From Methanobacteriota archaeon (lineage in GTDB: Archaea; Thermoplasmatota; E2; DHVEG-1), in the NCBI GenBank assembly GCA_963769885.1, contig CAVYNH010000006.1, positions 160,001 to 224,000 on the forward strand: a stretch of DNA of 64,000 bases. The letters run 5' to 3'. The position numbers and the translations under genes are program-made. Positions 1 through 64,000 of the stretch are shown here, in pieces; the stretch's first letter is position 1; every line of letters begins with the position of its first letter. The notes beneath the pieces are model-generated. The model saw nothing but the letters and a program-made list of their open reading frames with translations. It was not told the origin of the DNA and made no database searches.

Positions 1-116
1 CTAACGTTCCCTATTTATAGATTTCCTTTTTTATTTATAGCGAATAGGCGAAAAGAACGGGGAAATCGGGTTTACCCCATGCATTAATATCATCCTATCA
101 TATCCTGAGAAAAGCC

Positions 117-482
117 ATGAACCCCTGCCAGGCCATCCGTTGCAGCTACTGCTGCCAGCACACCAACATGCTCCTCACCGCAGAAGACACGAAGCGCATT
201 GAGGCTCTCGGACACCCCCCAGCCACCTTTCAGAAACCCGGGGCGCTCGGGATGCAGCTAAAGAACACCCACGGCCACTGCGTCTTCCTCAAGAACGGCC
301 AGTGCACCATCTACGACGCGCGGCCGCAGGGCTGCCGGCTCTACCCGATCATCCACAACCGCACTCTCGGCGGGGCCATCTGCGACGACGCCTGCCCACG
401 CCACACGGACTTCCCCCTAACACCGGAGACGAGACGGCAGCTGCGCCGACTCATCGAGACCCTGTTCCCCGACGGCCTCTAA
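117..482 (+). CDS. YkgJ-family cysteine-cluster (Zn/Fe-chelating) protein
   Basis: CxxxxCxxCC N-terminus, CVFL..CTIYDARPQGCRLYP motif. Confidence 0.8.
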   Translation: MNPCQAIRCSYCCQHTNMLLTAEDTKRIEALGHPPATFQKPGALGMQLKNTHGHCVFLKNGQCTIYDARPQGCRLYPIIHNRTLGGAICDDACPRHTDFPLTPETRRQLRRLIETLFPDGL

Positions 483-593
483 CCCGATTTTTTTCATATT
501 GCGGCCGAGGACGACGCCGAGCACCACCCGATCAGACCAACCTGCATGTACTACACGGGCTCCTTCGCCAGTAAAAGAAGCGGAGAACCCGCC

Positions 594-1115
594 TCACGCA
601 GTAGTCCGGGGAAACCACAGGCCGCAGAAATCGAGGTAGACGCCGGAGAGCATATTGTTTTGATACTCGCTCTCATTCACCGTCCGGCCAGGGTTCACCT
701 CACACGTCAATCTGAACAACCCGAGCTTCGGCAGATATCTAGAGTGAGTCAGACACGGAATCACCGTTTCCCCCACAGACAAGTGGCCGGCCACAAGCAA
801 GGAATCTGACGCTACAGTCTTTGCCGTCGCCAACCGCTTGACCGAATAGGAGAGGGTGACCGGCCCGACGGCACTCTCGTTTCCGTCGTTGACGACGGCA
901 GCAAAGGCATACACCTCGCAACCGTGCTCGCCGTAGTTCCACAAAAAACCGATGCTCTCAACCTTCAAATCAGGGAGCCCTTGGCGGAGAGGACACGGCA
1001 ATCCCGCCTTCTCCTCCGGCGCCATCATTGACGACGCCCGCACCTCAACCGCCCCAAAAAAAGCAAGAACCAGAAATACCGCACACAACGTCCCAACCAA
1101 AGGATACCTAACCAT
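594..1115 (-). CDS. Secreted CARDB/Ig-like domain protein
   Basis: Signal peptide from ATG 1115 (MVRYPLVGTLCAVFLVLAFF); PDLKV..VVNDG..VNESEYQNN CARDB-like pattern. Confidence 0.6.
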   Translation of the reverse strand: MVRYPLVGTLCAVFLVLAFFGAVEVRASSMMAPEEKAGLPCPLRQGLPDLKVESIGFLWNYGEHGCEVYAFAAVVNDGNESAVGPVTLSYSVKRLATAKTVASDSLLVAGHLSVGETVIPCLTHSRYLPKLGLFRLTCEVNPGRTVNESEYQNNMLSGVYLDFCGLWFPRTTA

Positions 1116-1207
1116 CCATACCAACCCTAAAAGAAGAAAAAACCTCAAGCTATTTAAAACTACGTACAGAGTATGGAAAAAACCAAATAAAACCAAAAAA
1201 AGGAGAA

Positions 1208-1281
1208 AGCCGCCGAAGGGATTTGGACCCCTGACCTGCTGATTACGAATCAGCCGCTCAACCGGGCTAAGCTACGGCGGC
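1208..1281 (-). tRNA. tRNA-Thr(CGU)
   Basis: Cloverleaf: acceptor GCCGCCG/CGGCGGC, anticodon arm GCTGA-TTCGTAA-TCAGC; no encoded CCA; atypical T-loop TCCAAAT. Confidence 0.92.
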
Positions 1282-1376
1282 AACCTTACCGCCCCTAATA
1301 CCGGAAGTACCATAAAAGAATTCTCATTCCTCCTCCCGCAACCTCTATCTACCGCCACCCCCAATACCACCCCACA

Positions 1377-2033
1377 ATGATCGCAGGCCTCGACGAAGCC
1401 GGACGCGGCCCCCTCCTCGGCCCCCTCGTCATCGCCGGACTCACCGTCACCACCGACGGCCCCCTCAAAAAAATCGGCGTCCGCGACTCCAAACAACTCA
1501 CCCCACAGCGCCGCGAAGAACTCACGGCCCAGATCCAACGCCTCGCCTCTCAGATCGAATACGTCATCATCCCCGCCGCCGACATCGACCGCCTCCGACA
1601 GCACAAGACCCTCAACGAAATTGAAGTCGACGCCTTCGCCCAGATCATCGACCGCCTCCGCCCCGACACCTGCTACGTCGACGCCGCCGACGTCCTCGAA
1701 GACCGCTTCGGCGCCGACATCAAAAAAGCCCTCACCTGCACCCCCACCATCATCAGCAAACACAAAGGCGACAGCCTCTACCCCGTCTGCAGCGCCGCCT
1801 CCATCCTCGCCAAAGTCACCAGAGACTACCATGTCCGCCTCCTCGAACAGGAACTCCAAGAACACCTCAATCTGCCCCTCGGCAGCGGCTACCAGACCGA
1901 CCTCCTCACCATGGACTTCCTGCGCGCCTGGCTGAAGAAATTCGACACCCTCCCCCCCTGTGTCCGCCACAGCTGGGAAAGCAGCAGACGCCTCATGCAA
2001 CACCACAAGACAAAGAAGCTCGACGAATTCTAA
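1377..2033 (+). CDS. rnhB: Ribonuclease HII
   Basis: GLDEAGRGP, DSKQL, SAASILAKVTRD, GSGY motifs. Confidence 0.95.
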   Translation: MIAGLDEAGRGPLLGPLVIAGLTVTTDGPLKKIGVRDSKQLTPQRREELTAQIQRLASQIEYVIIPAADIDRLRQHKTLNEIEVDAFAQIIDRLRPDTCYVDAADVLEDRFGADIKKALTCTPTIISKHKGDSLYPVCSAASILAKVTRDYHVRLLEQELQEHLNLPLGSGYQTDLLTMDFLRAWLKKFDTLPPCVRHSWESSRRLMQHHKTKKLDEF

Positions 2034-2244
2034 AAAAAATGTGAGGAAAAATGTGGCAGAAATGCCAGCAGACCTCGCTGGCAGTTCCCCCGCAACTCAA
2101 GTCATCTTACCACAGACATCCCGACCCAGCCTTATAAACCCCCAGGGGGGGTCACCGAAACTATTCACCCCGATTGTCTCAAAAGTCCCGATTCCCTCCT
2201 AACGAACACCCTCACTCCGAAAACCTAGCCAGAGAAAGTATTAC

Positions 2245-3486
2245 ATGACCACACACCATAAGACATCCCCGCTAATGCGCCGACCACCCACACATCGACC
2301 CGCACCATTCTCCACGCCCTTCATCCGAGCCACCACCCAGACCCTCGCCACCATCTTCTTCCACCACACCCTCGCCTCCAAAGCCATCGCCGCCACCCTC
2401 AAAACCCAACCCCGCTGGACCTCAGACGAACGCGCCACCTTCGCCACCACCACCTACAACCTCATCCGACACTGGCGCCTCCTCTGGTACCTCCAAGACC
2501 AACAACCCACCTGCCGCCAACACGATATCGCCAGACTCCTCACCACCTACCAAATCTACAAAAAAACACACACCGACCTCAAAAAACCCACTCCGCTCCG
2601 CGCCCGGCTCCGCCAAGCCAACAGCACCCGCGCCATCAAAGAATCCATCCCCGACTGGCTTGACGCCGCCTGCGCCGCCGAACTCGGCCCCCGCTGGAAC
2701 AACATCATCCACGCCCTCAACCAACCACCCACTCTAACCCTGCGTACCAACACCCTCAAAACCACCCGCGCCCGCCTCCTCCTCACCCTCAAAGAAGAAG
2801 GCATCCACGCCACCCCACTCCTCTGGGCGCCCGACGCCCTCTGCCTCCCCACACGGACCAACGTCTTCCGCCTCCCCAGCTTCCAAAAAGGCCTCTTCGA
2901 AGTCCAAGACGCCGCCTCACAGATGGTCTCCCGCCTCCTCGACCCCCAGCCCGGCATGCGCACCGCCGACGCCTGCGCCGGCGAAGGCGGCAAGACCCTG
3001 CACCTCGCCGCCCTCATGCACAACACCGGCCGCATCATCGCCCTCGACCCCCAACCCCATCATCTTCAGCAGCTCCGACGCCGCGCCACCCGCGCCGGCG
3101 CCGACACCATCGAAACCCGCACGACCTCAGCCAAGACCATCAAACGCCTCGCTGGCACCATGGACCGCCTCCTCATCGACGCCCCCTGCTCCGGCCTCGG
3201 CACCCTCCAACGCAACCCGGACATCAAATGGAAACTCACCCCAGACGCCCTCGAACGCCTCAAAAAAACTCAGCAAGACCTCCTCGGCACCTCCCCCCAA
3301 TCGCTTAAGTCGGGCGGCCGCTTCGTCTATGCCGTCTGCAGCATCCTCTACTCCGAAGGCGAACAGCAGATCGCCGTCTTCCTCACCCGCCACCCTACCT
3401 ACCAGCTCCTCCGGGAGCACCGCTACTACCCGGACGCAGACGGCACCGACGGCTTCTACATGGCGCTCCTCCAACGAACGGAATAA
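2245..3486 (+). CDS. RsmB/NOP2 family RNA m5C methyltransferase
   Basis: EVQDAASQ, DACAGEGGKT, DAPCSGLG, YAVCS, DGFY; start uncertain. Confidence 0.9.
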   Translation: MTTHHKTSPLMRRPPTHRPAPFSTPFIRATTQTLATIFFHHTLASKAIAATLKTQPRWTSDERATFATTTYNLIRHWRLLWYLQDQQPTCRQHDIARLLTTYQIYKKTHTDLKKPTPLRARLRQANSTRAIKESIPDWLDAACAAELGPRWNNIIHALNQPPTLTLRTNTLKTTRARLLLTLKEEGIHATPLLWAPDALCLPTRTNVFRLPSFQKGLFEVQDAASQMVSRLLDPQPGMRTADACAGEGGKTLHLAALMHNTGRIIALDPQPHHLQQLRRRATRAGADTIETRTTSAKTIKRLAGTMDRLLIDAPCSGLGTLQRNPDIKWKLTPDALERLKKTQQDLLGTSPQSLKSGGRFVYAVCSILYSEGEQQIAVFLTRHPTYQLLREHRYYPDADGTDGFYMALLQRTE

Positions 3487-3543
3487 AAAGGGGCCATCCC
3501 TTCCATAAATTCAATAAAGAAAATTGAGGAGGAAAAACAACCC

Positions 3544-4308
3544 TTGGAGATCCTCAGCTGGAATATCAACGGCATCCGCGCGGCAGAAAAAAAAGGATTC
3601 CGCACCTGGCTGCTCAAGGCCTCCCCCGACATCCTCTGTCTCCAAGAAACAAAAACCGACCTCGACGAGCTTCCCGCCTCACTACGCAACCTTCCCGGCT
3701 ACCACAGCGTCTGGAACCCAGCCGAACGTAAAGGCTACAGCGGCACCGCCACCCTCAGCAAACAGAAACCGCTCGCCGTTCACATCGGCATCGGGATAAA
3801 AGAATTCGACCACGAAGGCCGCATCCTCATCACCGAACACCCCGGCTTCACCCTCTTCAACATCTACTTCCCCAACGGCAAACAAAACAAGGAGCGCCTC
3901 GACTTTAAGATGCGCTTCTACGACGCCTTCCTCGACTACATCGACGCCTGGCGCGACACCCACGGCCACGTCATCATCGGCGGTGACTACAACACCGCCC
4001 ATACGGAAATCGACCTTGCCAGACCCGAACCCAACGCCAAGATCTCCGGCTTCCTCCCCATCGAACGACAATGGATCGACACCTTCGTCAGCCACGGCTA
4101 CGCCGACACCTTCCGAGCCTTCAACACCAAACCAGACAACTACACCTTCTGGGACCAACGCACCAACGCCCGCGCACGCAACATCGGCTGGCGCGTCGAC
4201 TACTTCTTCGTCGACACCGGCCTCCTGCCCCACGTTAAAAAGGCGTACATCATGCCAGAGACCACGGGCTCAGACCACTGCCCCATTGGCATCACCCTGA
4301 TCCCCTAA
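3544..4308 (+). CDS. xth: Exodeoxyribonuclease III / AP endonuclease
   Basis: SWNINGIRA, LQETK, GDYNTAH, GWRVDY, GSDHCP; TTG start. Confidence 0.95.
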   Translation: MEILSWNINGIRAAEKKGFRTWLLKASPDILCLQETKTDLDELPASLRNLPGYHSVWNPAERKGYSGTATLSKQKPLAVHIGIGIKEFDHEGRILITEHPGFTLFNIYFPNGKQNKERLDFKMRFYDAFLDYIDAWRDTHGHVIIGGDYNTAHTEIDLARPEPNAKISGFLPIERQWIDTFVSHGYADTFRAFNTKPDNYTFWDQRTNARARNIGWRVDYFFVDTGLLPHVKKAYIMPETTGSDHCPIGITLIP

Positions 4309-4333
4309 AAAAACCAAGAGCAGAGAAGAAATC

Positions 4334-5839
4334 ATGAACGACGCACTCGACTACATCACCAAAGAACAACACGACCTCACCCTCCTCGGCGGCATCAGCG
4401 CCCTCCTCAGCTGGGACCAAATGACCTACATGCCCCCCGCCGCCATCACCGAACGATCCGACCAAATCGCGTACCTCGCCAGAACTATCCACGAACGCAT
4501 CACCTCCGACACCCTCTACCACCACCTCACCACCCTCACCCAACCCACCACCCTCGCCAGCCTTTCCGACCCCCAACACCACATCGTCACCCGCCTCAAA
4601 AAAGACGTCGACAAAGCCAGAAAAATCCCCCCAGCCTTTGCCGAAAAACTCAGCAAAACCACCGCCCTCGCCTACCAATCCTGGCAAGACGCCAGAAAAC
4701 ACAACAAATACCAAGACTTCGCCCCCCACCTCCACCAAATCCTCGACCTCGAACGCCAATACACCGACTACATCCGCCTCCCCGGCCCCCCCTACAATAG
4801 CCTCCTCGACGACTACGAAGAAGGCATGACCACAGACACCCTCACCCGTGAATTCCACACCCTCCGCCCAAAACTCGCCGAGATCCTCGATCACATCACC
4901 GCCACCAAACGCTACCACACCCAAACCCCCCTCACCCGACCCATCCCCCTCACCCACCAACAAGCCCTCAGCGCCCACCTCCTCAAAACCATGGCCCTGC
5001 CCCCGGACGAAACCAGGCTCGACGTCTCCACCCACCCCTTCACCACCACCCTCGGCGACCAAGACGTCCGCATCACCACCAACTACGAACGCGACAGCCC
5101 CCTCTTCGCCTTCTTCTCCACCATGCATGAAGCAGGCCACGCCCTCTACGAACTCGGCCTCCCCAAAGGACCCTACCAAGACACCGTCATCTCCGACGCA
5201 CCCTCCCTCGGCATCCACGAATCCCAATCCCGATTCTGGGAAAACATGATTGGACGCAACAAACACTTCTGGACCTACTTCTACCCCCACCTCCAACGCA
5301 CCACCCCCACCTTCCAACACCTCAGCCTCGACGCCTGGTACCACGACATCAACCTCGTCAGACCCTCCCTCATCCGCATCGAAGCCGACGAACTCACCTA
5401 CTGCCTCCACGTCATCCTCCGCTACGAACTCGAACTCGACCTCATCGACAACAAACTCACCGTCAACGAACTCCCCCAAGCCTGGAACCAAAAGATGCAG
5501 CACTACCTCGGCATCACCCCCACCACCGACACCGACGGCGTCCTCCAAGACATGCACTGGAGCGGCGGCGACTTCGGCTACTTCCCCACCTACGCCATCG
5601 GCAGCATCTACGCCGCCCAACTCTACGACGCCATCGCCCGCGACCTCCCCACCCTCGACGACGACCTCACCCACGGCCGCCTCGCCCCAATCCTCAACTG
5701 GCTGCGCGAGCACGTCCACCAATACGGCCGGCTCGACACCGCCGACGAGATCATCAAACGCGCCACCGGCCACGGGTTGGACTCCCAGGTCTACGTGAAT
5801 TATTTAAAAAACAAGTACTATGCTCTCTACGACGTCTAA
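4334..5839 (+). CDS. Carboxypeptidase Taq (M32 family)
   Basis: HPF, HEAGH zinc motif, HESQSRFWEN, IRIEADE, QDMHW, GYFPTY. Confidence 0.95.
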   Translation: MNDALDYITKEQHDLTLLGGISALLSWDQMTYMPPAAITERSDQIAYLARTIHERITSDTLYHHLTTLTQPTTLASLSDPQHHIVTRLKKDVDKARKIPPAFAEKLSKTTALAYQSWQDARKHNKYQDFAPHLHQILDLERQYTDYIRLPGPPYNSLLDDYEEGMTTDTLTREFHTLRPKLAEILDHITATKRYHTQTPLTRPIPLTHQQALSAHLLKTMALPPDETRLDVSTHPFTTTLGDQDVRITTNYERDSPLFAFFSTMHEAGHALYELGLPKGPYQDTVISDAPSLGIHESQSRFWENMIGRNKHFWTYFYPHLQRTTPTFQHLSLDAWYHDINLVRPSLIRIEADELTYCLHVILRYELELDLIDNKLTVNELPQAWNQKMQHYLGITPTTDTDGVLQDMHWSGGDFGYFPTYAIGSIYAAQLYDAIARDLPTLDDDLTHGRLAPILNWLREHVHQYGRLDTADEIIKRATGHGLDSQVYVNYLKNKYYALYDV

Positions 5840-5852
5840 GGTGAAACCGCCC

Positions 5853-6530
5853 ATGTCCCAGCTCGTACTCATCCGCCACGGCCAATCCCAATGGAACCTC
5901 GAAAACCGATTCACGGGATGGGTCGACGTCCCCCTCTCAAAAAAAGGCATTGACGAGGCCATCGCCGCCGGCAAAAAACTCAAAGGCATGCGCTTCGACG
6001 CCGGATACGTCTCCCACATGCTCCGGGCCGTCCAGACACTCCACTACGTCCTCCTCGAGCTCCACGATCCCCGAACCCCCATCATCTACCATGAGGAGCC
6101 ACGCATCCATAACTGGGAACACCACTCCGGCAGCCTCGCCACAGAGCTGCCCATCTACCAGTCCGTCGAACTCGCTGAGCGGTACTACGGAGACCTCCAG
6201 GGGTTGAACAAGGACGAGACACGTAAAAAATACGGGGAGGAGCAAGTCCACATTTGGCGACGAAGCTACGATGTTCGTCCCCCAGGCGGCGAGTCCCTCA
6301 AGGACACCTGCGAACGAACGATCCCCTACTACCAGGCCTATATCGAACCCGAGATACGCAAGGGCAAGACCCTACTCATCGTCGCCCATGGCAACAGCCT
6401 GCGTTCCATCATGAAATACCTGGAGCAAATCCCCGATGAGACCATCCCCTCTGTTGAAATACCGACCGGAATCCCGCTTCTGTATAATTTTGAGCAAAAC
6501 GGGGAATATATAGGGAAAAGAACCCTATAG
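5853..6530 (+). CDS. gpmA: 2,3-bisphosphoglycerate-dependent phosphoglycerate mutase
   Basis: LIRHGQSQWNLENRFTGWVD, ERYYGDLQGLNK, AHGNSLR; start moved to ATG 5853. Confidence 0.92.
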   Translation: MSQLVLIRHGQSQWNLENRFTGWVDVPLSKKGIDEAIAAGKKLKGMRFDAGYVSHMLRAVQTLHYVLLELHDPRTPIIYHEEPRIHNWEHHSGSLATELPIYQSVELAERYYGDLQGLNKDETRKKYGEEQVHIWRRSYDVRPPGGESLKDTCERTIPYYQAYIEPEIRKGKTLLIVAHGNSLRSIMKYLEQIPDETIPSVEIPTGIPLLYNFEQNGEYIGKRTL

Positions 6531-6597
6531 GCAAAACATAAATACCGCTTTTTTTATCTCGGTAACCTATTAATTTCATGCAGCCAGGAGCATTTTC

Positions 6598-7656
6598 ATG
6601 GTTACCAAGCGTTTCAAATGCCCTTCTTGTGGCGAAATCGCCGCTTTCTCGGCGACCCCCGGCGAAGAACTCGTCGTCACCTGCCCATCCTGCAAGATGA
6701 GCGGTAAGATTCGCTTTCCAGCAGAACACGATGCATCTTATGCCATCGAGGTTTCCCATCTCAAGAAAGTCTACGGCGACCTCATCGCAGTCAATGACAT
6801 CTCCTTTCAGGTTCGCAAAGGGGAAATCTTCGCCTTCCTCGGACCTAACGGTGCCGGGAAAACGACCACCGTTGAGATTATCGAATCCATCAGGGAGCCG
6901 ACGGCAGGGGCCGTTACACTCCTGGGAATAGAAATCAAGACCGGGTTCAATAAGATCAAAGAGCGCATCAGCATCCTGCCACAAGAGTTTCATTCCTTTG
7001 AACGGTTCACCGTTCGGGAGACTCTTGAGTACTTCTCTCACCTGTATCAGAAGCGGGCAGACATCGATGCAATCATCGACGCCATGAATTTGGAATCCCA
7101 TGAGAAGATGCTGTATCGGAATCTATCCGGCGGGTTGAAGCAGCGGGTGGGCGTCGCCCTTTCACTCATCAACGACCCGGACATTGTTTTCCTTGATGAG
7201 CCGACCACGGGGTTAGATCCCAAAGCCCGCCGCGAAGTCTGGCAAGTGATTGCGAATTTACGAGCACAGGGCAAGACCGTGTTCTTGACGACCCATTATA
7301 TGGAAGAGGCTGAGTTCCTCGCAGACCATATCGCCATCATCCACAAAGGCCGGATTATCGCTGAGGGTTCGCTTGATGAACTAATCACCAAGCACGGCCA
7401 TGGCAGCGTGCTGCGTATTCAGGGCTGTTCGTCGCCCGATGCTATCGAAATCCTCAAAGAACAAGGGTACGAGGCGCGGTCAGAGGGGAATGGGAATCTC
7501 GCGGTGACCATTACCTACAAGGATCGGGTCCTCGATGTGCTTTCGACGCTGCGTCATGCGGCTGTTGAATATGAAAGCATCGAGATTCGTCGGTCGAACC
7601 TCGAGGAAGTGTTCCTGTCCTTGACGGGGGCGAAGCTGCTGGAGGCAGAGGCATGA
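6598..7656 (+). CDS. ABC transporter ATP-binding protein with N-terminal Zn ribbon
   Basis: CPSC..CPSC N-terminus; GPNGAGKT, LSGG, FLDEPT. Confidence 0.9.
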   Translation: MVTKRFKCPSCGEIAAFSATPGEELVVTCPSCKMSGKIRFPAEHDASYAIEVSHLKKVYGDLIAVNDISFQVRKGEIFAFLGPNGAGKTTTVEIIESIREPTAGAVTLLGIEIKTGFNKIKERISILPQEFHSFERFTVRETLEYFSHLYQKRADIDAIIDAMNLESHEKMLYRNLSGGLKQRVGVALSLINDPDIVFLDEPTTGLDPKARREVWQVIANLRAQGKTVFLTTHYMEEAEFLADHIAIIHKGRIIAEGSLDELITKHGHGSVLRIQGCSSPDAIEILKEQGYEARSEGNGNLAVTITYKDRVLDVLSTLRHAAVEYESIEIRRSNLEEVFLSLTGAKLLEAEA

Positions 7657-8762
7657 ACTTTCGGATTGTGGGCATGGATGTCTTCTATAGCATAAAGAGC
7701 TGGTGGCGGAGCAAGGGCACCGTCTTTTGGTCGCTGTTGTTTCCCATCATGCTTATCCTTATTTTCGGTGCGATTTTCTCGAATACTGGCAGTACAAATT
7801 ATTCGTTGTATATTCAAGATCTTGACCATTCAGCGATGTCGTCACAGTTACTGAAGATCATGAATGATACCGGCGTGTTGAAGCTCACCATGGTCAGTGA
7901 TTCGGAAAACGCCACCGATTACATCAAGGCGAACAATATCCAATGCTTCCTCGTCATCCCGGAAGGATATCAGCAGCGTATCAATCAGTCGTTTGTCAAT
8001 CCAGCGTCGACGGTGAATCTGACGTTTTATTACGATCCATCGCAGTCGACATCAACGGAGGTCGTGCGCAGTGTCATCTCGAATATTTTGCAGACGATGA
8101 ACATGCGTATGTCGAATGGCCGGAACATCGTCGGTCTTTCGACGCAGAGTTCGATAACGAATAATTTCAATTACATCGATTTTTTCGTCCCTGGGATGAT
8201 CGGGTTTACGATCATGCAGCAGGCGATCTACGGAAGTATCGAGCGGAACACGAAGTACCGCAAGGACGGGATCTTGCGGAAGCTGCTGACGACGCCGATT
8301 ACGCGGTCTGAATGGATCCTGGCGAAGATGGTGTTCATGTTGTTCCTGTCCTTTTTAACGACGGCGATTTCAATCGTGGTCGGCGTCCTTGTGTGGGGCT
8401 TGCATGTGAACATCACGCCGCTGATGATTTTGACGGTGATCACCACGAGTTTTATGTTCTCCGGCATCGGGATGATCATCGGCCGGTTCGTCAAGGAAGA
8501 AGAGACGGCTGATATGGCGGCCGGGGCGATCAGTTTCCCGATGATGTTCCTGGCGGGGACGTTCTTCCCGTTGGCAATGATGCCAGGGTTCCTGCAGGTG
8601 GTCGCACAGGTGTTACCGCTGTATTATGTGAACGAGGCATTACGCAACTCCATGATTTACATGAACACGTCGCTGGCATTCACGAACGCGATGATCGTCT
8701 TAGTCTTCGCAGTGGTATTCTTCGTGGTCGGCGTCGTGTTGACGAAGTGGCGGGAAGACTAA
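7653..8762 (+). CDS. ABC-2 type exporter permease
   Basis: Overlaps ATPase stop (ATGA); 1+5 TM layout, DFFVPG, FLAGTFFP. Confidence 0.88.
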   Translation: MNFRIVGMDVFYSIKSWWRSKGTVFWSLLFPIMLILIFGAIFSNTGSTNYSLYIQDLDHSAMSSQLLKIMNDTGVLKLTMVSDSENATDYIKANNIQCFLVIPEGYQQRINQSFVNPASTVNLTFYYDPSQSTSTEVVRSVISNILQTMNMRMSNGRNIVGLSTQSSITNNFNYIDFFVPGMIGFTIMQQAIYGSIERNTKYRKDGILRKLLTTPITRSEWILAKMVFMLFLSFLTTAISIVVGVLVWGLHVNITPLMILTVITTSFMFSGIGMIIGRFVKEEETADMAAGAISFPMMFLAGTFFPLAMMPGFLQVVAQVLPLYYVNEALRNSMIYMNTSLAFTNAMIVLVFAVVFFVVGVVLTKWRED

Positions 8763-51721: not shown

Positions 51722-51796
<75 letters not shown>

Positions 51797-53662: not shown

Positions 53663-53813
53663 AGTCTCTTTTACCTCCGACGTAGGTAGTTTTTGCCTAG
53701 TATTTTAGGTTTATCCCTAACTTCGGATGCTTTCTAGGTTTGATAGCGTATAGCCTTCTTGTTTATAAGGTTTACCTCGGAGAATTTCCAGAAGAAAATC
53801 GTGGAAAAAAAAG

Positions 53814-55203: not shown

Positions 55204-55247
55204 AGGGGGGATTCTCCTTTATGAAATATTTTGATTTTTCTTGGTTT

Positions 55248-56276
55248 TTATTCTTCGAGGACGTTGCCGATCTGCTTGGCGGGGTAGCCTGGCGGGATGG
55301 GCTGGGTCCAGACGATGGCGTTGGAGAGCCTGGTGTTGGGCTGGATGGTCTCATGGTCGCCGACGGCGACGTCTTCGAGGATTGCACCGTCGCCGATGTG
55401 GCAGCCTTCGCCGAGGACGCTGCGGCGGATGGTGGTCTGGGCGCCGATGATGGCGTCGTTGAAGACGACGGAGGAGTCGACGAAAGCCTTGGCTCCGACG
55501 GTGACATGGTTTCCGAGGCAGGATGCGGTGAGCGTGCCTTTGTTTATGGTGTGTGCTCCGGTGAGGTTCTGCTGGTGGTGTTGTTTGAGGAGTTGTTGGT
55601 TGACGTCAAGGTAGCTGCTGATGCGGCCGACGTCGATCCAGTAGCCTTGGAATTGGTAGCCGTAGAAGCGGTCAGTGTCGCGGATGATCTGGGGGAAGAT
55701 CTCTTTTTCCATGCTGATGAGGCGGCCGGGTGGGATGTAGTCCAGGACTGTTTTTTCGAGGAGGTAGGCGCCGGCGTTGATAAGGTTGCTGGGGGCGTCT
55801 TGTGGCTTGGGTTTTTCGACGAACTTGGTGATTTTTTTGTCCGGGGTGAGTGCGACGACGCCGTATTCGGAGACGTGGTCGACGGGCCAGAGGGAGATTG
55901 AGGCGACGGCGTTGTTTTTTTCGTGGAAGCGGAGCATGTGTTCGAGGTTGATGGAGGCGATGATGTCGGCGTTGAGGACGAAGAAGCGGCCGGTGAGGTA
56001 GTGGTCGGCGAATCTGACGGCGCCGCCGGTGCCGAGGGGCTGGGGCTCCTGGTTGACGATGATGGTTTGTGGGAGGTGGAGGGCGTCGATGGCGGCTTGG
56101 ATTTGGTCGCGGCGGTAGTTGACGGCGAGGATGACGGTGTCGACTTCTGGGGGGAGGCTGTGGAGGATGTAGGTGATCATGGGTTTGTTGAGGATGGGGA
56201 GTAGGGGTTTGGCTCGGGTGAAGGTGAAGGGACGCAGGCGGGTGCCGAAGCCTCCGGCGAGGATGATGGCCTCCAT
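55248..56276 (-). CDS. Sugar-phosphate nucleotidyltransferase (Man-1-P guanylyltransferase-like)
   Basis: LAGGFGTRLRP, PLGTGG, FVEKP, WIDVG, C-terminal hexapeptide repeats. Confidence 0.9.
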   Translation of the reverse strand: MEAIILAGGFGTRLRPFTFTRAKPLLPILNKPMITYILHSLPPEVDTVILAVNYRRDQIQAAIDALHLPQTIIVNQEPQPLGTGGAVRFADHYLTGRFFVLNADIIASINLEHMLRFHEKNNAVASISLWPVDHVSEYGVVALTPDKKITKFVEKPKPQDAPSNLINAGAYLLEKTVLDYIPPGRLISMEKEIFPQIIRDTDRFYGYQFQGYWIDVGRISSYLDVNQQLLKQHHQQNLTGAHTINKGTLTASCLGNHVTVGAKAFVDSSVVFNDAIIGAQTTIRRSVLGEGCHIGDGAILEDVAVGDHETIQPNTRLSNAIVWTQPIPPGYPAKQIGNVLEE

Positions 56277-56434
56277 AGTGTTCTCCTCAGGGATGTTGGT
56301 GTGGTTGCTGGTGTGCTAAAACGCGGGTTCTTTTAATAGTTACCGTTCAGGTTCCTTGGTTGTTCTAGGATGGCGGTAGGCAAAGTTTTATATTCTGAGG
56401 GAAAATAATTACCAATGCTTAGGGAGGCTTGCAG

Positions 56435-57301
56435 ATGAAGTTGCGTGTGAAGCGGAACGTGACCGTGCTTGGGTCGGTGTTCTTGATGGTCTGTGTGGTG
56501 CTGCCGTCGGTGGGCGCCGGCTTGATTGCGACGAAAGCGGATGCTTCGCGCGGGCGGGCTGGGGCGCCGACGGCGTCCAGTACGGGGGTGTTTTGGGGAC
56601 TGATCTTCGCGGTCGGGTACTATTATAACCATCCTGATAAGAACCGTCCGGAGATGATTAATGCCTCGAATAGCTTGCAGGCGACGCTGTTGGATTCGTC
56701 GAACTGGCAGCCGGATCATATCCATCTGGTGCAAGGTAGCGAGGCGACAGGGAAGCGGCTGATGCAGGAGCTGCGGTGGCTAGCGAAGAACTCGCAGCCA
56801 GGGGATTACGTCTTGGTGTACATCACGACGCATGGGGCGCAGATGCGTCTCAATGGGCGGCCGTTGGATCTGCCACCGAAGGACGAGCCGGATGGGATGG
56901 ATGAGTTCCTGATGATGTACAACGGGTTCGACAAGTGGTATTCCATCGTGTGGGATGACCCGTTGAACCTCTGCCTGAGTGCCATCAAGTGCCAGGGGCT
57001 GTGTTTGATTGTCGACAGCTGCTTCAGCGGCGGGTTCAACGACCGGCCGCTGCCGTCCTCGGGTCAGCAGCGGGTCGTGCTGATGTCCTGTGCGGAGAAT
57101 GAGGAGTCGTACGGCACTTCTTTCTCTGATTCCCTGATCACGGGGTTCCAGGGCTGGGCGGATTGGGTACTCTTCGGCGGGAACGGTGACGGCGTCGTCA
57201 CCGCGGAGGAAGCCTTTGGGTTTGCCCAATACTTTGTCTCAGGGCAGACGCCGACGATTGCGGATTACTCCAGCGCTGAGTTTCCAGTGACGTACGTCTG
57301 A
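56435..57301 (+). CDS. Secreted caspase-family (C14-like) peptidase
   Basis: Signal peptide, YITTHG and VDSCFSGG dyad, NGDGVVTAEEAF. Confidence 0.8.
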   Translation: MKLRVKRNVTVLGSVFLMVCVVLPSVGAGLIATKADASRGRAGAPTASSTGVFWGLIFAVGYYYNHPDKNRPEMINASNSLQATLLDSSNWQPDHIHLVQGSEATGKRLMQELRWLAKNSQPGDYVLVYITTHGAQMRLNGRPLDLPPKDEPDGMDEFLMMYNGFDKWYSIVWDDPLNLCLSAIKCQGLCLIVDSCFSGGFNDRPLPSSGQQRVVLMSCAENEESYGTSFSDSLITGFQGWADWVLFGGNGDGVVTAEEAFGFAQYFVSGQTPTIADYSSAEFPVTYV

Positions 57302-57415
57302 CGCCTTGACGGGGGCGCTGCCCCTCTGGTTTCTTCGGTTTCTTGGTGGGAAAACTATTAATTGGATTGTTTCATTCAGGAACGCACAAGGCCCCTCTTG
57401 GGGGTTGTGGTCATC

Positions 57416-57489
57416 GGGCTCGTGGTCTAGTTGGTTATGACGTCTCCTTGACACGGAGGAGGTCTTGAGTTCGAATCTCAACGAGCCCA
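57416..57489 (+). tRNA. tRNA-Val(GAC)
   Basis: GGGCTCG/CGAGCCC acceptor, TTGACAC anticodon loop, TTCGAAT T-loop. Confidence 0.95.
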
Positions 57490-57621
57490 CTCCACTTCTT
57501 CTTATCTCATCCTCCTAGTGGGCATTTAACGCATTCAATCCATGAAGAGAAAACAGAATAAATTACCAGATGAATGTGAGATAGTAGGGAACAATAGGAA
57601 AAAAGAGCGGCGAAAGAAGAG

Positions 57622-57900
57622 ATGGTCGAAGATTATAATATTGAAAAAGACAAGGACATAAGAGCCTCATCTGTCCAAGGAGGAAAAATCATTGGGGAAA
57701 AATTATCATTATTCTCCTTTGTCATCGGGATACCATTGTTAATCATCGGATTGTTCTCGCTTTTTTTCATGATGTGCGGTCCTGGAGTACCTGTGAATAC
57801 GGCTGTACTCATCGCATCTCTACTAGTCTTTGTGATAGGCTTGTTATTGACGATTGGCGGAATCACAATTAAAAAGAGCAGGACGCGAGAGAGGGCTTGA
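57622..57900 (+). CDS. Small two-TM protein in AT-rich islet
   Basis: Two TMs; lies between tRNA-Val and a copy of its 3' end. Confidence 0.6.
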   Translation: MVEDYNIEKDKDIRASSVQGGKIIGEKLSLFSFVIGIPLLIIGLFSLFFMMCGPGVPVNTAVLIASLLVFVIGLLLTIGGITIKKSRTRERA

Positions 57901-57925
57901 GTTCGGATCCCAACGAGCCCACTCC
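57896..57925 (+). repeat. att-like direct repeat of the tRNA-Val 3' end
   Basis: 28/30 identical to 57464-57493. Confidence 0.85.
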
Positions 57926-58031
57926 GCTCATTCTGCATCTCTGCTTCTCGACGCTGCTTCCTGCCCAAACGCCTGTTTCTCGTCTAAAATTATATATATT
58001 ATAGAGTGATTATAAAATAGAACGTGACGTT

Positions 58032-59633
58032 ATGGCCGATAGCAGCAGAAAAAAACGTGAGATGGCCATCGGGATGGCCCTTCTTTTATTGCTCGTGAGT
58101 GGAGGGGTTACTTCGGGCTCAGCGACGGCATCGAACCCAGCCGGGGGCCGCGCCATAGCAAAAGGGGGGAGTCCTGGGAGCTTTTTAACCATGTATGACT
58201 TCAATGGGACGACGCCCCCGTCTTCAGGCCAGAGGGCATGCCACCGGTTAGGGGTGCAGCATCCCGGCCGCGGACCGCCGACGTCCGGGCCAGAGCTCGA
58301 CAACCTGACGGAGTTCAGCACACCGGAGTACACCAGTATCTCCCGGCTCGACGGGAACCGGGTAAACACATTTTCTGAAGAGGGGCGGCCGCTCCAGTTT
58401 TTCCAGTTCATGATCAAGGAGAACGTCTCAGAGATCCGGAATCTGAAAATAGCCTGGTACGGACATGCCAGCGACCGCTCCGCCTATCTCTACATCTGGA
58501 ACTTCAAGGATTCTGACTGGGAATTGGTCGGCGTCAACAGGTTCGTGACATCGGATGAGCAAATATCCAAGACCTACATCAGCGACATCTCCGATTACAT
58601 CAACAGCACATGCGGACGTCTGTACCTAGTCGTCATCCCCAAAACCATCGCAATCTTCAGTCAGCGCATTGACACGGATTACGTCCAGGTACTGGTCGGC
58701 AACCCGAGCACAATAACGCTGCAGGACGACGCCTACCACCACCACAACGAGACGACGTATGTAGAATGGTGGTTCTTCCAAGTCATCAACGTCACCCAGG
58801 ACCTCCAATTCTACATCGGCTACTATGTCCTGAACCCACGGAACGGGTTCGCCCTGATCTCCATCGGAGTCTTCGAAAAAAACGAAAGCTACCAGATCCA
58901 GAAGCTGTATCCCTCCTCAGCCTTCCAAGCGTCTCATGAAAGACCGGACGTCAGGCTAGGGGATTCCTCCCTCACCGCCGCAAGCGAGAACACCTTTCTC
59001 GTCAACGGCAGCATCAGAAATATACGGCACAGTATGACCTGGAACCTGGTGTTCGAGCGGACTGCACCTCCGTTTGATTTCCTCGAGTCCGCAGGGGAGA
59101 CGCAGTACCTCTGCTACCTCCCAGGAGCCTGGGTGAATGGGACGATAAAACTAGACAATGTCTCCTATTCGCTGGGCGGGTCCTACGGCTACCATGACCA
59201 CAACTGGGGAGGCGAACCGTACCTCCCCTGCCAGTGGACGTGGGCAGACGCCTGCCGGCCGGAGGACGCCTTCGCGCTCGCCATGGAGCAGGTCGAGCAT
59301 CTCACCTGGCATACACAGAATCTTTTTGTGGCATTCGAAGGTATCGTGACGTCTTTTGAGGACGTCCAGACAACGTACAAGGATTTCCGATTTGACGTCC
59401 ACCGATCGCTGCCGCTGTTCACGTGGTATCCTGTAACCCGGCAAGTCCATGCAGTAAACAAAGAGGGATATGCAATAGATTTCACAGCAGAGGTCCAGAA
59501 GAACATCCCCCTGTACTTCGGATATCCCCGCGTCTTGAACGAACAGATATCCCTGTTCCGAGGATCGTTGTCGAAGGATGGAGCCCCGATCTATACTTTT
59601 AAAGTACTAGGGTTCACTGATTATACGAGTTAA
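58032..59633 (+). CDS. Secreted protein with tocopherol-cyclase/CrtC-like C-terminal domain
   Basis: Signal peptide; YVEWWFF and GYHDHNWG..WTW motifs. Confidence 0.6.
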   Translation: MADSSRKKREMAIGMALLLLLVSGGVTSGSATASNPAGGRAIAKGGSPGSFLTMYDFNGTTPPSSGQRACHRLGVQHPGRGPPTSGPELDNLTEFSTPEYTSISRLDGNRVNTFSEEGRPLQFFQFMIKENVSEIRNLKIAWYGHASDRSAYLYIWNFKDSDWELVGVNRFVTSDEQISKTYISDISDYINSTCGRLYLVVIPKTIAIFSQRIDTDYVQVLVGNPSTITLQDDAYHHHNETTYVEWWFFQVINVTQDLQFYIGYYVLNPRNGFALISIGVFEKNESYQIQKLYPSSAFQASHERPDVRLGDSSLTAASENTFLVNGSIRNIRHSMTWNLVFERTAPPFDFLESAGETQYLCYLPGAWVNGTIKLDNVSYSLGGSYGYHDHNWGGEPYLPCQWTWADACRPEDAFALAMEQVEHLTWHTQNLFVAFEGIVTSFEDVQTTYKDFRFDVHRSLPLFTWYPVTRQVHAVNKEGYAIDFTAEVQKNIPLYFGYPRVLNEQISLFRGSLSKDGAPIYTFKVLGFTDYTS

Positions 59634-59731: not shown

Positions 59732-60154
59732 TTATACCGTAGGTCTGACGATGCCGCAGCTGGGACAACGTTCGTCATGTACGCAGAGGACGCCCCCGCA
59801 CTTTGGGCAGTGCCACCGCACTTCTTCATTCTGGATGAACCGCCTCATGCCATCGCGCTTTATTGCGCTAAGGTTCCGGATCACGCTTTCATGGTACCTC
59901 GTCTGATACCGCTGGTTCAAGTGTTGTAATCGGCCGCAGGGGAATTCCTCGCATTCGAAGCAGAACTGAAATGAATTTTTTCTAAGGTTCTTGCACCGTC
60001 TGATTTTGCATTGCGACCGCGTCTTCGGCTTCTTTTCTCGATCGTCTCGGCAGCCACGACAGGGGTTCTTTTCCCGAAGATAGGCTCGGCAGACGCGGCA
60101 GTCGATTCCGCAGGGAGCGACCAGTCTCGTGGAGAAACTATTTTTTGACGTCAT
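59732..60154 (-). CDS. DUF3795 Cys-rich protein
   Basis: APCGIDCRVC, CRGC, CKIRRC, FCFECEEFPC, C-terminal CPKCGG..CPSC. Confidence 0.82.
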   Translation of the reverse strand: MTSKNSFSTRLVAPCGIDCRVCRAYLREKNPCRGCRDDREKKPKTRSQCKIRRCKNLRKNSFQFCFECEEFPCGRLQHLNQRYQTRYHESVIRNLSAIKRDGMRRFIQNEEVRWHCPKCGGVLCVHDERCPSCGIVRPTV

Positions 60155-61404
60155 GAGTGAATCCTCTTGCTTGGTGGTCGTGATGGCGCACGACTTGGGA
60201 GCAAGACCAGGCGAAGGATCGATATGAGGCGACCACCCATGGCAGTGGGTCATCCCGGGAGAATGTGGCGTAGACGTTATCAGGGCGGTATGCGGAAAAC
60301 CAGTCTTTTATGGAAAGTGTTCCGTGGCGTAGGCCTGAGAGCCCTGAGAGGAGATCCTCAGCCCCGAACACCCAGCGCAGAGAGGCGTCGTCATGCGGAG
60401 TGGAGGCTGGGAGCGGCTTGCCGAGGGCATCGAGGTACGCCAGGTGCGCATGGCTGCAGCCGAGGCGCGCCGGGAAGCTGTTCTGCATCCAGAGCCGCGG
60501 GTTAATCTCGATGAGCTTCATGTGCCCGTCGCGTGGATCTCGACGGAACTCGACATCGACGATCCCATGATATTGTAGGGGATGAAGCAGGGAGGTCGTC
60601 ATCTGCTCGAGCGAAGGCTCCTGGGCCTGTCGAAGGCAGCAGCCGTTGCCGAAATCCAACGGCCATTCCCGGACCCGTTCGTAGACGAAGGCGCCGTGCA
60701 CACCACCGTTCTTGTCGTAGTAGGCGTTGAACCCGTGCATGGCCGCGGCGGTCCCTGGGATAATCTCCTGGGCGATCATGGCATGGCCTTTCTCGGCGGC
60801 CTTGCCGACCTGTTCGATGAACTGCTTTGGGTCGGAGGCGAGGAAGCCCTTGGTGGGAAAATCGAGGCGAAACCGTGTGGGGTACCGGGGCTTGAGGATG
60901 CAGGGGTAGGAAATCTCCTTGCTCGCGACGGTGAGGTCGCTGCCGGGGTCGATAATCAATGTAACGGGGTGGGGAATGTGGTACTGCTCGAGGAGGCGGG
61001 CGAGTGATTGCTTGTCGATGAGGCGGTCAAGGAGTCTCATAGGAAGGTGAGGTGAAGTGGTAGTACGGGGCGAGGTCATCCTGATGTTTAGCCAGGAGGA
61101 GTGCTTCGGTGTCACCCGTGGGGAACAGAACGCCTTTGCAGGGGAGCTGGCGTCCGAGGTCGGCAAGGAACCGGATGTAGGCGTCTGGGGATTTGGTGTG
61201 GTCTGATGCGACCAGGCCGAGGGCGTACTTGGAGTAGAAGGAGGATTGTTTTCGGGCGTCGATGATGAGGGTGGGGAGGTGATGGGGGGCGAGGCTGTGG
61301 ACGACGCCGAGGTTGGAGGTGGAGTAGGCGCCGAGGATGATGGCAGATGGGGTGTGCTCGTCGAAGGTTTGGAGGTAGCGGGCTAGCGGTTGGACAGGCG
61401 TCAT
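60138..61404 (-). CDS. ATP-grasp carboxylate-amine ligase (D-aspartate ligase-like); apparent +1 frameshift at ~61035
   Basis: LFPTGD, DK, YPCILKP, QEIIPG, VEFRRDPRDG..LIEINPR; GAG[A]CTC joins frames. Confidence 0.8.
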
Positions 61405-61532
61405 CCCCTTTTTATAGGGAGGAAACATGAGGGGCAGGGTATTTGAGTCTTTAGGTTCTTGCGAGGCCGTGGATGGTCGAAGGGTGGAAAGGGATAAATA
61501 TCGGGTGCGCCCATCAAACTCGTGGGGCGCGT

Positions 61533-62778
61533 ATGCGGTTGTTGAAGGCTGGGTCGCTCGTCGTGATCGGTGTTCTGCTTGTCTCGGCGTCATCCAGCAT
61601 GGTAGTTTCCTCGACGCCGGGTCTGCTGGGATGCGCGCCTGCCCATGTCATCGAGGGCGTCCCATACATCGCCCAGACCGGCCGGATTTACTGTTACTAC
61701 GCCTGCCTCGCCATGGTCCTCAACTTCATGGGGTTGAACACCTCGCTGGACGAGATTCTGTTTTTCGGCGGTGTGGGCTACGCCCATGCTTGCGATAATG
61801 GCAGCCGGCTCCCAAGTCCAAGGGTGTATTCCACGGACGTGCTCGGGTACTTCGGCGTGCAGGAGAGCCAGTGGTACGCGGGGATCCCCGATCCTCCGTC
61901 CGAGGAGAACTGGACTGCCTTTTGCATTCGGTTCCAGGAGAACATCACGAACGATCGTCCTGTGTTGGTCATCGTGGATCCGTTCTCCCTGCCGTCCCTT
62001 CGGGGGCAGTATGCCGTCGGCGATCGTATCTGGAGCGGCCTGTTTTCCTCTGGCATCCACGTCATCCTTCTCATCGGCTACGACTCAGCGAATGAGAGCG
62101 TCTGCTATCAGGATCCGAACGCGGGCTACTACGGCTCGTCGCGGTTCGGCGACCATGCCTGGATGACCTTCTCTGAACTGAGGACAGCCACTGAAAGCAG
62201 CATCGTCCCCTATTACGAGATTGGGACATTCACCCAAGTGTCCCCGGCACCTCCGCGAGCGGAAGCGGCGGCATTAGCGTTGCAACACAACCACGAGTTG
62301 CTGAACGGCTCCCGGCCGTACAGCGGCATCAATGCAACGAAGCAGCTCTGTCAATGGTACATCTGCTGAGAACAGGTCGGAAACGATTACGCTGTACGGG
62401 CAGCAGGGGGGCCCACGTCAACATGTTCTGCTCGTTCGATTCCTTCACCTGCTGTTGTCGGTCCTACGACCGTTGAAGCCCAACGTCTTCGACCTCCTTT
62501 CTCTTGCGCCTCACGATCCCTTCAAGGAGATTGCGGTGGGGAAGAATCATGTCGCTGACTACCTCGGCGCCGCCACTTTTCTTGCCTGGGGCGCCAATGA
62601 ATCGCGGTTGCTCCGCGACGAGGCACGACTTTGGGAGGACCTGTCGCAGCGCTACGAGGTGTTCCTCCTCGGGGGCGGCTTTGTCCGGGACCCATTATCA
62701 GAAAACATAATGGAGACGATGGAGAATCGGATGCATCAGGTGCTCGAGGCTGAACAGACCATCCTCGACAACGATTAA
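61533..62778 (+). CDS. Secreted papain-fold C39-like/BtrH-like peptidase; apparent +1 frameshift at ~62357
   Basis: VPYIAQ..YCYYACLAM, HVILLIGYD, YQDP; the downstream ORF joins on removal of one base. Confidence 0.65.
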
Positions 62779-62832
62779 GCTCGTTTTTTCTTCCGTAAGA
62801 AAAATGGAAAAATAGAAAAAAAGGGGGGATCG

Positions 62833-63999
62833 TCACTCGAGCTGGACGTTCTTGATGAAGCAGAGCATGATGGACGCGGTCGCGTTGCGTTGGAAGACCT
62901 CGCCCATGGTCTCGAGCCGGACGTTGATCGTCGCTGGGCCGAACCCCAGGATGAACTTCGTCTCGAGCGTGTCACAGTAGTTGACGTTCAGCCGCTGGTT
63001 CTCCGCGGTGGTCTTGCGGCCGAGGAGAACGAGGCCCTTGAGGGTGATGCTCCAGTTCAGGTCGGACACGTTCATCGTCCCGATGTTCTTGATGCCGACC
63101 ATGAGCCGCGTTTTACCTGGTAGGATGCTCGAAATCGTCAGCACGGGGAGTTCATGAATGGCGATGACATGAGGCGCCGTCCATGCTGACTCAGATCCCA
63201 CTTCGTCTTTTGCCTTTGCTCGGATATTATAGGCGCCTTCTATCATCCAGGCGTGGGAGCTGTTGCAGGAGCTTCCGGATTGGTACGGCCCGAGCCATGC
63301 GCTGAGGTTCCCGTCGCCCCAGTCGAACCGGAAGAAGATCGCCTGCCCAGCGGGGTCTGTGGCGCTGGTGGTGAACGTGGCCGGCCGCCCGGTGATTCCT
63401 TCATCGGGCCCCTGGGGGACGCTGACGTTCTCCGGTGGGGGGTCAGAGACCCACAGGGTGATCCGTTCCCCGATGTTGTCGGGGTAATCATCGTACTGGG
63501 GGCTCTCCGTTTGGGTATCATGCTCGACGGCGTAGTCAAAGGCCTCGCGGAAGCTGATGACGCCATCGCTGTTGTTGTCGGCGTTCACGGCGACGCCGTA
63601 GGCGTCCTCCCATTTCATAGCCGCAGTCCAGTGGAACACGTATTCATCATAGTAATACGGGTAGGGCAGCATCGCATACGAAGATTCATCATAGCGGCAG
63701 GCGGAGGATGCGACGACAGGGCCGGGCGGGACAACGACGTTATCGATGAATCCACCCGAGTAGCAGGGCTCGAAGGTGCAGAGGATCTCGACGTTATCGG
63801 GGAACAAGGCGAGGAGTTCAGCGAAATGATCGTCAGAGAGCTCCTCATGGTTCCAGAGGTTCTCATAGGTGCTCAGCCCGCCATCGGTCCCGCCGTGGTC
63901 CGTGGTGAAGATAAAGAGTTTTTCGCCGCCCGAGAAGTTCGCGGCGAGGTTGGTGAAGACAGCGTTCACGGTGGAGAGAAGACAGGCGTACATGATGTC
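62833..63999 (-). CDS. C13/legumain-like clan CD peptidase with PKD and conserved C-terminal domain (5' end outside window)
   Basis: FTTDHGG, FEPCYSGGF, DWGDG PKD, IKNIG..LGFG C-terminal domain. Confidence 0.75.
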   Translation of the reverse strand, partial: DIMYACLLSTVNAVFTNLAANFSGGEKLFIFTTDHGGTDGGLSTYENLWNHEELSDDHFAELLALFPDNVEILCTFEPCYSGGFIDNVVVPPGPVVASSACRYDESSYAMLPYPYYYDEYVFHWTAAMKWEDAYGVAVNADNNSDGVISFREAFDYAVEHDTQTESPQYDDYPDNIGERITLWVSDPPPENVSVPQGPDEGITGRPATFTTSATDPAGQAIFFRFDWGDGNLSAWLGPYQSGSSCNSSHAWMIEGAYNIRAKAKDEVGSESAWTAPHVIAIHELPVLTISSILPGKTRLMVGIKNIGTMNVSDLNWSITLKGLVLLGRKTTAENQRLNVNYCDTLETKFILGFGPATINVRLETMGEVFQRNATASIMLCFIKNVQLE

Positions 64000-64000
64000 G

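Follow-up and report, generated by a model that had tools for sequence, protein, structure and literature searches.

We analyzed a window of 64,000 nucleotides from a Methanobacteriota archaeon of the DHVEG-1 lineage (Thermoplasmatota; contig CAVYNH010000006.1 of assembly GCA_963769885.1), in which the forward strand is alternately C+A-rich and G+T-rich over kilobase-scale blocks. The original prediction had ascribed these blocks to a fixed, polar, kilobase-scale process, and this was borne out for a mutational process; coding strand alone, inversions and misassembly do not explain them, and the pattern recurs across the genome and in relatives, so that none of the outcomes named in advance as refuting was observed. 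The bias is mutational and is tied to the DNA strand, not to codon selection, since mirror-image codon classes, two-fold sites, intergenic DNA and proteins all follow it. As to its cause, we tentatively favor, with less than even confidence, a reading in which the skew records, averaged over long times, the direction in which DNA is synthesized locally, outward from many promoter-type gaps and with the polarity seen in yeast.

The source assembly (G000) comprises 2.09 Mb in 7 contigs and is 92% complete; the window is C6:160001-224000. Its 16S rRNA bears archaeal signatures, and nearly all named relatives of a protein from the window belong to Thermoplasmatota, M9B1D and SM1-50 among them. Skew was expressed as K4, defined as (G+T-C-A)/n on the + strand at fourfold-degenerate sites, and the null for K4 extremes was a shuffle that preserves coding-strand bias. 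Reading 5' to 3', a change from G-rich to C-rich is termed a down switch and one from C-rich to G-rich an up switch, which holds whichever strand is read. Genes were predicted with a simple caller (~75% coding, some short genes missed), and junction classes carry some error. Comparison genomes included G001, a sister species of the same genus (~75% identity), and G014, from another genus of the same family.

Strand asymmetry in the window and the genome

The four counts of bases per 60-nucleotide line that had been made by hand were exact on recount, and the C/A-rich and G/T-rich blocks lie where they had been placed, with 1-kb GC skew ranging from -0.56 to +0.58 and AT skew anti-correlated with it (r -0.6 to -0.8). 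The list of blocks needed two amendments, as the G/T-rich block at 31-36.8 kb is broken at 33.0-33.5 kb and the segment at 16.1-19.6 kb is an unskewed island of lower GC content. Gradual changes of sign within single open reading frames (ORFs) were also confirmed, in nrdD (28.95 kb) and in the peptidase C25 gene (39.15 kb). The proposed maxima at divergent intergenic regions fared less well: most of these "maxima" are plateaus and not peaks, the gap at 10.8 kb is tandem, and the site at 45.2 kb is a sharp switch of sign.

At fourfold sites K4 saturates at -1.0 and +1.0 in blocks of the window, and the skew recurs on all 7 contigs and in relatives. Absolute K4 exceeds 0.6 in 36% of the 1-kb bins of G000, compared with 0.2% under the coding-bias-preserving shuffle. 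The genome holds 421 domains with a median length of 2.7 kb and a maximum of 14 kb, which together cover 62% of it, and the favored strand changes about every 3-7 kb. About 250 swings were counted, corresponding to ~148 full-swing equivalents, or one per 14 kb. Plateaus reach 9-14 kb, and periodicity is weak (the autocorrelation of K4 is -0.29 at a lag of 6 kb and +0.09 at one of 14 kb).

On the coding strand, the extreme classes of silent sites are near mirror images of each other (C85 A8 G4 T3 versus G78 T12 C7 A2). Two-fold sites show the same shift, as does intergenic DNA (r 0.83). That the bias reshapes proteins was likewise upheld, with Thr at 10.0 versus 4.2%, His at 3.6 versus 1.9%, Val at 4.9 versus 12.0% and Gly at 6.4 versus 8.8% between the two polarities; overall, Thr, His and Asn on one side and Val, Arg, Glu and Gly on the other shift with position by up to 2.4-fold. 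Thr, Val and His contents that are halved or more than doubled by genomic position may bias phylogeny, binning and the calling of foreign DNA.

Misassembly, inversions of a replichore-skewed genome, or codon or translation selection are hardly credible as causes. A few single frameshifts do suggest assembly indel errors. However, two Logan contigs match 4.9 kb of the window at 100% identity, contigs from other runs cover the window, four other records (73-89% identity) have the same domains, and switches are gradual within intact genes. Inversion presupposes a replichore-scale skew, and none was seen in G000 (50-kb means, with no switch at the origin oriC) or in samples of the single-contig relatives G003 and G008. 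Codon selection is countered by intergenic DNA, which follows the skew, and by mirror-symmetric codon use, and the GC-rich relative G037, from another family, lacks the pattern.

Comparison with relatives showed that domains are common within the genus and re-dealt between genera. Domains of G001 correlate with those of G000 at r 0.86 with a slope of 0.58, and three JGI contigs carry the same domains as the window. Between G014 and G000, orthologs show no correlation in polarity (r 0.04, n 52). The standard deviation of local K4 within the family is 0.55 in G000, 0.36 in G014, 0.35 in G001, 0.30 in G020, 0.21-0.25 in four more genomes and 0.16-0.18 in others. In two genomes of another family K4 varies hardly more than noise, and in G037 the variation is weak.

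The features of the window, by position, are the following, with "zero" marking where the skew crosses zero:

1200-6300: C+A-rich domain in + strand letters, with rnhB, rsmB-like, xth-like and a 501-aa ORF, all + genes; K4 -0.5 to -1.0 over 1.2-6.0 kb
6300-8400: gradual up ramp within + strand ABC genes; zero ~7150
8400-15800: G+T-rich domain that takes in + genes at 14.9-15.9 kb; K4 +0.3 to +0.9 outside the insert
12.6-13.9 kb: weakly skewed insert with no syntenic match in G001
16100-19600: near-unskewed island of lower GC, with 2-oxoacid:ferredoxin oxidoreductase and ferritin-like genes; GC4 (GC at fourfold sites) 0.53-0.62, K ~0 in G000 and G001
19564-19951: divergent promoter gap at the start of the long C+A domain; K4 +0.1 to -0.6
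19800-28600: C+A-rich domain of ~9 kb; K4 -0.4 to -1.0; same polarity in related contigs L198/L199
28272-31838, - strand: nrdD with a probable intein; up ramp within the gene, zero ~28950
29100-36600: G+T-rich domain, falling to ~0 at 33.0-33.5 kb, immediately to the right of the gap with the nrdR promoter
35100-36900: down ramp across purB, with a final step at the purB/tyrS-like gap; zero ~36750
36900-38900: short C+A-rich domain
38929-41289, - strand: peptidase C25 gene, with an up ramp in its 3' part; zero ~39150
39300-45200: G+T-rich plateau that takes in + genes at 41.5-42.2 kb; K4 +0.7 to +1.0 from 40.2 kb
45082-45429: sharp down switch (+0.88 to -0.41) at a divergent promoter gap, adjoining an insertion not in G001
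45400-51600: C+A-rich domain with a beta-propeller/PQQ-like gene and an ABC operon; K4 as low as -1.0
51600-52000: up switch at a convergent junction with tRNA-Arg and tRNA-Ser; zero ~51850
51900-57100: G+T-rich domain with rps10, an EF-1alpha-like gene, two minus-strand genes and a + gene at 56.4 kb
57300-59600: gradual down ramp beyond tRNA-Val to a weak C+A stretch
60000-61450: weak G+T-rich domain ending at a divergent gap

The C+A-rich domain at 19800-28600 contains ~6 kb of minus-strand genes (hypF and its neighbors, trxB and the ORF after nrdD) that have a G+T-rich coding strand. The oxidoreductase/ferritin island (16100-19600) lies on a different contig in G001 and is 25% diverged; it was either acquired twice or is a zone of low activity of the process. 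An insertion of ~1.4 kb within nrdD (29614-31035), a probable intein, is missing from related contigs and runs. The nrdR promoter gap is a sharp switch site in G014.

Gene orientation and the geometry of switch sites

The claim that polarity is independent of gene orientation holds in part. Coding strands average K4 -0.25 and gene strand accounts for an R2 of 0.25-0.33, but the coding strand is not the whole cause. Mutation or repair coupled to transcription could leave the sense strand C+A-rich and spill to neighboring genes through read-through or antisense transcription. The mean coding K4, the alignment of switches with promoters and 3' ends, the climb of K along genes and the presence of UvrABC-like genes all agree with this mechanism; we nevertheless consider it improbable. 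A gene-strand kernel reaches an R2 of only 0.31-0.33 in G000, and coding strands can be G+T-rich (+0.7 to +0.8) even 7-8 kb from any opposite-strand gene. Along the ribosomal protein operon and the co-oriented genes that follow it (C4:271.9-288 kb), K4 on one strand runs from -1.0 to 0, -0.9 and +0.6. G014 has equally shaped domains with a mean coding K4 of +0.07, or almost no coding-strand bias, and the polarity of orthologs is uncorrelated between genera as given above. The sign is not set by the transcribed strand. Polarity is a property of position and shifts with the surroundings: K4 of the MFS gene at 43.9-45.1 kb is opposite in sign between G000 and G001, and the two genomes differ by an adjacent 2.5-kb insertion.

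Down switches are anchored at promoters. In G000, 61% of them lie within 150 nt of a promoter-containing gap, compared with 21% of random positions; the value is 51% after correction for coding bias and 46% in G014. Up switches avoid promoters (13%) and favor convergent junctions and gene 3' ends, and 80 of the 124 intragenic ups fall in the final 40% of their genes. Among sharp steps at junctions, 53 go down and 10 go up, and step size rises with gap length. Folded around sharp down steps, the profile declines from 0.6 to 0 across 5 kb in G000 and 3 kb in G014. At tRNA promoters K is +0.34 upstream and -0.10 downstream. Up ramps have a fairly constant width of ~1.7 kb (quartiles 1.2-2.1 kb), whereas down ramps vary from sharp to >3 kb and many are broad.

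The original prediction had proposed a search for motifs at extrema and zero-crossings. Neither an origin recognition box (ORB) nor another motif was found at switches: among 6-8-mers, mini-ORB, TATA and palindromes, none was common to G000 and G014, with only weak enrichment of AT, TA and palindromes, and mini-ORB matches were not enriched (p 0.14). No Chi-like polar motif was found within domains. With gap length matched, synteny breaks were not significantly enriched at switch sites (13/16 versus 18/28). A dispersed repeat of ~710 bp with one ORF (C4:357803-358515 and 9 other places on C4 and C7, 85-89% identity; also in G001) is insertion sequence-like, and its copies are too few to account for the domains.

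Mutation types and replication machinery

Mutation types were derived from fits of direction-mixing or additive-exposure models to composition classes in G000 and G014. Asymmetric A-to-G and C-to-T changes with symmetric transversions reproduce the fourfold and two-fold classes in both genomes, and the mixing fit for G000 gives a strand asymmetry of ~4.5-fold for A-to-G and ~11-fold for C-to-T. The same pair of changes could arise from G.T mispairs in the G+T strand during synthesis, or from deamination of its C and A when single-stranded. Both transitions shift jointly in 7 genomes with GC4 from ~0.16 to 0.80, suggesting, without proving, that the ordinary mutation process is itself directional. 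Domains show no dinucleotide context, with log2 observed/expected ratios within 0.08 except for TA. Mutagenesis by APOBEC-type single-stranded DNA deaminases, which act on C only and prefer certain dinucleotides, was rejected on this lack of preference and on the asymmetry of A-to-G as well.

The proposed count of orc1/cdc6 genes and ORBs gave two cdc6 genes and one canonical oriC (C6:261.7-261.9 kb), where ORBs at 261744 and 261902 flank an AT-rich element. This oriC lies between co-oriented genes and coincides with a strong down switch in both G000 (+1.16) and G001 (+0.84). With ~250 swings and no switch at oriC on the 50-kb scale, a canonical oriC/ter replichore skew was rejected, as was multi-origin Orc1/ORB replication, given the single ORB origin, two cdc6 genes and the lack of mini-ORB enrichment at switches. 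The genes cdc6 and nucS adjoin oriC (C6:259505-261925), an arrangement shared by G001, G014 and G018. The second cdc6 (C7:394333-395515), the NAD ligase gene (C4:13935-15937) and the oxidoreductase alpha subunit (window 16555-18217) each contain one frameshift and are intact in relatives; these are probably assembly indel errors and so give no evidence of pseudogenes.

In a survey of 41 genomes of the class, neither MutS nor a B1/B3-like PolB was found. Instead, 40 of the 41 encode a divergent family B polymerase of 956 aa (C6:605458-608328, - strand, in G000). A B8 PolB group is reported in all DHVEG-1 metagenome-assembled genomes (PMC7544198), and the matching occurrence pattern leads us to assign the 956-aa enzyme tentatively to B8. 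No solved structure is close to it (best E 1.5e-5). Its ExoI/II/III acidic residues are intact, which speaks against dead proofreading, and it carries genus-specific changes such as G239S. PolY, NurA and histone were each sought in 5 genomes and found in none, those searched for NurA being 85-92% complete; a mre11/rad50-like pair was found. NucS, UDG, EndoV, RadA, Fen1, PolX, NAD ligase and Mre11/Rad50-like genes are present, as are gyrase, UvrABC-like genes, MCM, PolD and a B2-type PolB operon. None of the surveyed repair or replication genes tracks skew amplitude. Loss of NucS, UDG or EndoV was rejected as the cause, with all three present in G000 and G001 and no match to amplitude, and PolX does not discriminate, occurring in 23 of 24 family members. 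A PolX-PHP gene lies directly upstream of the bacterial-type NAD-dependent ligase gene in G000 (C4:12223-15937).

Explanations and relation to known systems

Dense replication initiation was among the original suggestions, and dense local initiation of DNA synthesis is the leading explanation here, although no ORB or motif marks the switches and the period is weak. Synthesis would start at many promoter-containing, AT-rich gaps, ~150 full-strength equivalents in 2.1 Mb, and would run outward for only ~3-5 kb, stopping when it encounters an opposing tract. The leading-type strand, which runs 5'-3' outward from the start, would become C+A-rich, and the other, lagging-type strand would gather deamination products or errors from G.T wobble pairs, giving a yeast-like asymmetry of far greater strength. 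Absence of MutS and replacement of B1/B3 by the divergent B8 PolB may leave the asymmetry uncorrected. The tracts could be true short replicons or leading-only strand-replacement tracts.

We favor this reading because it fits promoter anchoring, the behavior of oriC in this genus, co-directional genes, the A+C-rich leading strands of yeast (PMC3459929) and the lagging-strand role of archaeal PolB (PMC13136892). Yeast-type polarity makes most G000 genes co-directional with synthesis. As expected of replication direction, the skew is present at silent and non-coding sites and follows the DNA strand, not the gene strand.

Several observations weigh against synthesis outward from promoters. To our knowledge, a start every ~14 kb, as would be needed, is unprecedented in prokaryotes. 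An additive-exposure model fits composition as well as the direction-mixing model. The oriC is approximately flat in 8 other genera, including the skewed G014 and G020, and its skew reaches just ~3.5 kb in G000. AT/TA-richness predicts start sites weakly (matched percentile 0.58-0.60 in G000 and 0.70-0.76 in G014), and some down ramps lie within operons without a gap (C4:279-281 kb). Up ramps are more stereotyped and have higher shoulders (0.65 versus 0.50), which suits the opposite polarity discussed below, and a midpoint test (rho 0.18-0.27 for ups, 0.12-0.29 for downs) did not demonstrate that ups are passive meeting points. The polymerase set is class-wide with intact B8 exonuclease motifs, yet skew amplitude varies threefold.

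A stronger form of the outward-synthesis reading is possible but doubtful. The DHVEG-1 chromosome may be copied mostly as a patchwork of about 150 or more short tracts (~10-15 kb replicons) from promoter-type AT-rich starts without ORBs, the map being written by an asymmetric, uncorrected lagging-strand machinery (B8 PolB, no MutS). If true, these archaea would be prokaryotes with a eukaryote-like, promoter-linked replication program that can be read directly from sequence.

A layout with start sites at downs is the geometric dual of one in which start zones lie at ups and promoters act as barriers, and the same map can be read with mirror polarity, as in bacteria and mitochondria. Synthesis would then start in ~2-kb zones near gene 3' ends, or randomly in recombination-dependent fashion, the displaced or lagging-template strand would become G+T-rich by deamination (C to U, A to I), and occupied promoters would act as barriers giving sharp down steps. 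We regard this as unlikely but deserving of serious weight. The narrow width range and higher shoulders of up ramps, beside downs that vary from sharp to >3 kb, fit such start zones, as does the concentration of intragenic ups toward gene ends; isolated up dipoles whose outer flanks taper gradually occur in G014 (at 6.7 kb on C61 and 106 kb on C2), the chemistry is that of single-strand deamination, and RadA is present. However, most G000 genes would replicate head-on, oriC is a down and not an up switch in G000 and G001, and A-to-G would have to equal or exceed C-to-T in G000 despite the presence of both UDG and EndoV. GC4 is also slightly lower at up than at down centers in G000 (0.73 versus 0.765, p 0.02), though not in G014. 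If recombination-dependent replication were purely random, the skew would average out (PMC13136892), so this route requires fixed start sites or barriers.

A further alternative, which we rate as rather improbable, replaces chromosome replication with gene conversion or with repair that starts at breaks or nicks. Where AT-rich promoter gaps break, the ends would be resected and their 3' tails (the strand toward the gap) deaminated, or the strand leaving the gap would be repeatedly replaced by nick translation, fixing template lesions. Repair of this kind predicts that G+T lies left and C+A right of a site and that the skew decays over 3-5 kb, which matches the folded profiles in both genera and the 4-5 kb conversion tracts of Haloferax (PMC8223754). 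It also predicts flat zero baselines, as observed in G014 (C2 39-66 kb), and Mre11/Rad50-like genes, NucS, PolX, Fen1 and NAD ligase are at hand. Yet NurA was not found in the 5 genomes searched, the ratio of extra A-to-G to extra C-to-T would have to vary ~25-fold between genomes, tracking GC level, switch sites lack significant enrichment of synteny breaks, and plateaus reach 9-14 kb.

The closest parallels are the skew around yeast origins (PMC3459929) and the human N-domains or fork-direction profiles. In these, as here, each chromosome has many alternating domains, the skew steps at promoter-type intergenic sites and returns gradually, and GC and TA skews are correlated; in yeast the sign also matches (A+C on the strand leaving the site). 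The GC-skew jump in yeast is ~9%, while K4, a different measure taken at silent sites, swings by up to 1.8 here. Unlike in yeast or human, the domains span a few kilobases in an archaeon with one ORB origin and no origin motif, and the proposed direction comes from nucleotide composition. Vertebrate mitochondrial heavy/light strand asymmetry is of similar strength to the archaeal skew, with recomposed proteins. Both it and bacterial replichore keto skew involve the transitions seen here, with C changing to T and A to G on one strand, but mitochondria and bacterial replichores have 1-2 polarity blocks per replicon, compared with ~420 domains here that are re-dealt between genera without replichore-scale skew.

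GRINS (2021, PMC8256042) also have intense GC and TA skews that are correlated, take either sign and recode proteins, and G/T mispairing was proposed for them; archaea are not mentioned in that paper. The mean absolute correlated GC and TA skew exceeds the GRINS threshold of 0.15 here. GRINS, however, are duplicated regions of >500 bp in gene clusters, whereas the archaeal skew extends to housekeeping genes and intergenic DNA and takes in 62% of the genome, and the required duplication (>500 bp, >80% identity) is lacking (trxB, for example, has one match in the genome); the skew was rejected as a case of GRINS. Archaeal recombination-dependent replication, known from Thermococcales and Haloferax (PMC11005403, PMC13136892), initiates at dispersed sites independently of oriC, which would account for the missing replichore skew, and RadA is present, but that process is described as random with no population-level leading/lagging pattern, in contrast to the fixed, conserved local polarity here.

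Strand-asymmetric substitution is already known, and a recent survey argues that archaea have little of it (PMC12999951); our literature search returned no description of a kilobase-scale, near-saturating, genome-wide form in archaea. Whatever its cause, an asymmetry of mitochondrial strength operates at kilobase scale in this lineage. If the skew maps DNA synthesis, it would predict where origin-independent archaeal replication, at present described as random, has fixed starts and stops, and would make the question testable.

Two further loci stood out. Record JAZDGT010000083.1, labelled Methanobacteriota, contains a gene of Thermoplasmatota type, shows the same kind of strong swing in skew (from -0.39 to +0.42) and is possibly mislabelled. 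At C5:170442-173249, four archaellin-like genes have low skew and a GC4 of 0.49-0.63, unlike the remaining genome.

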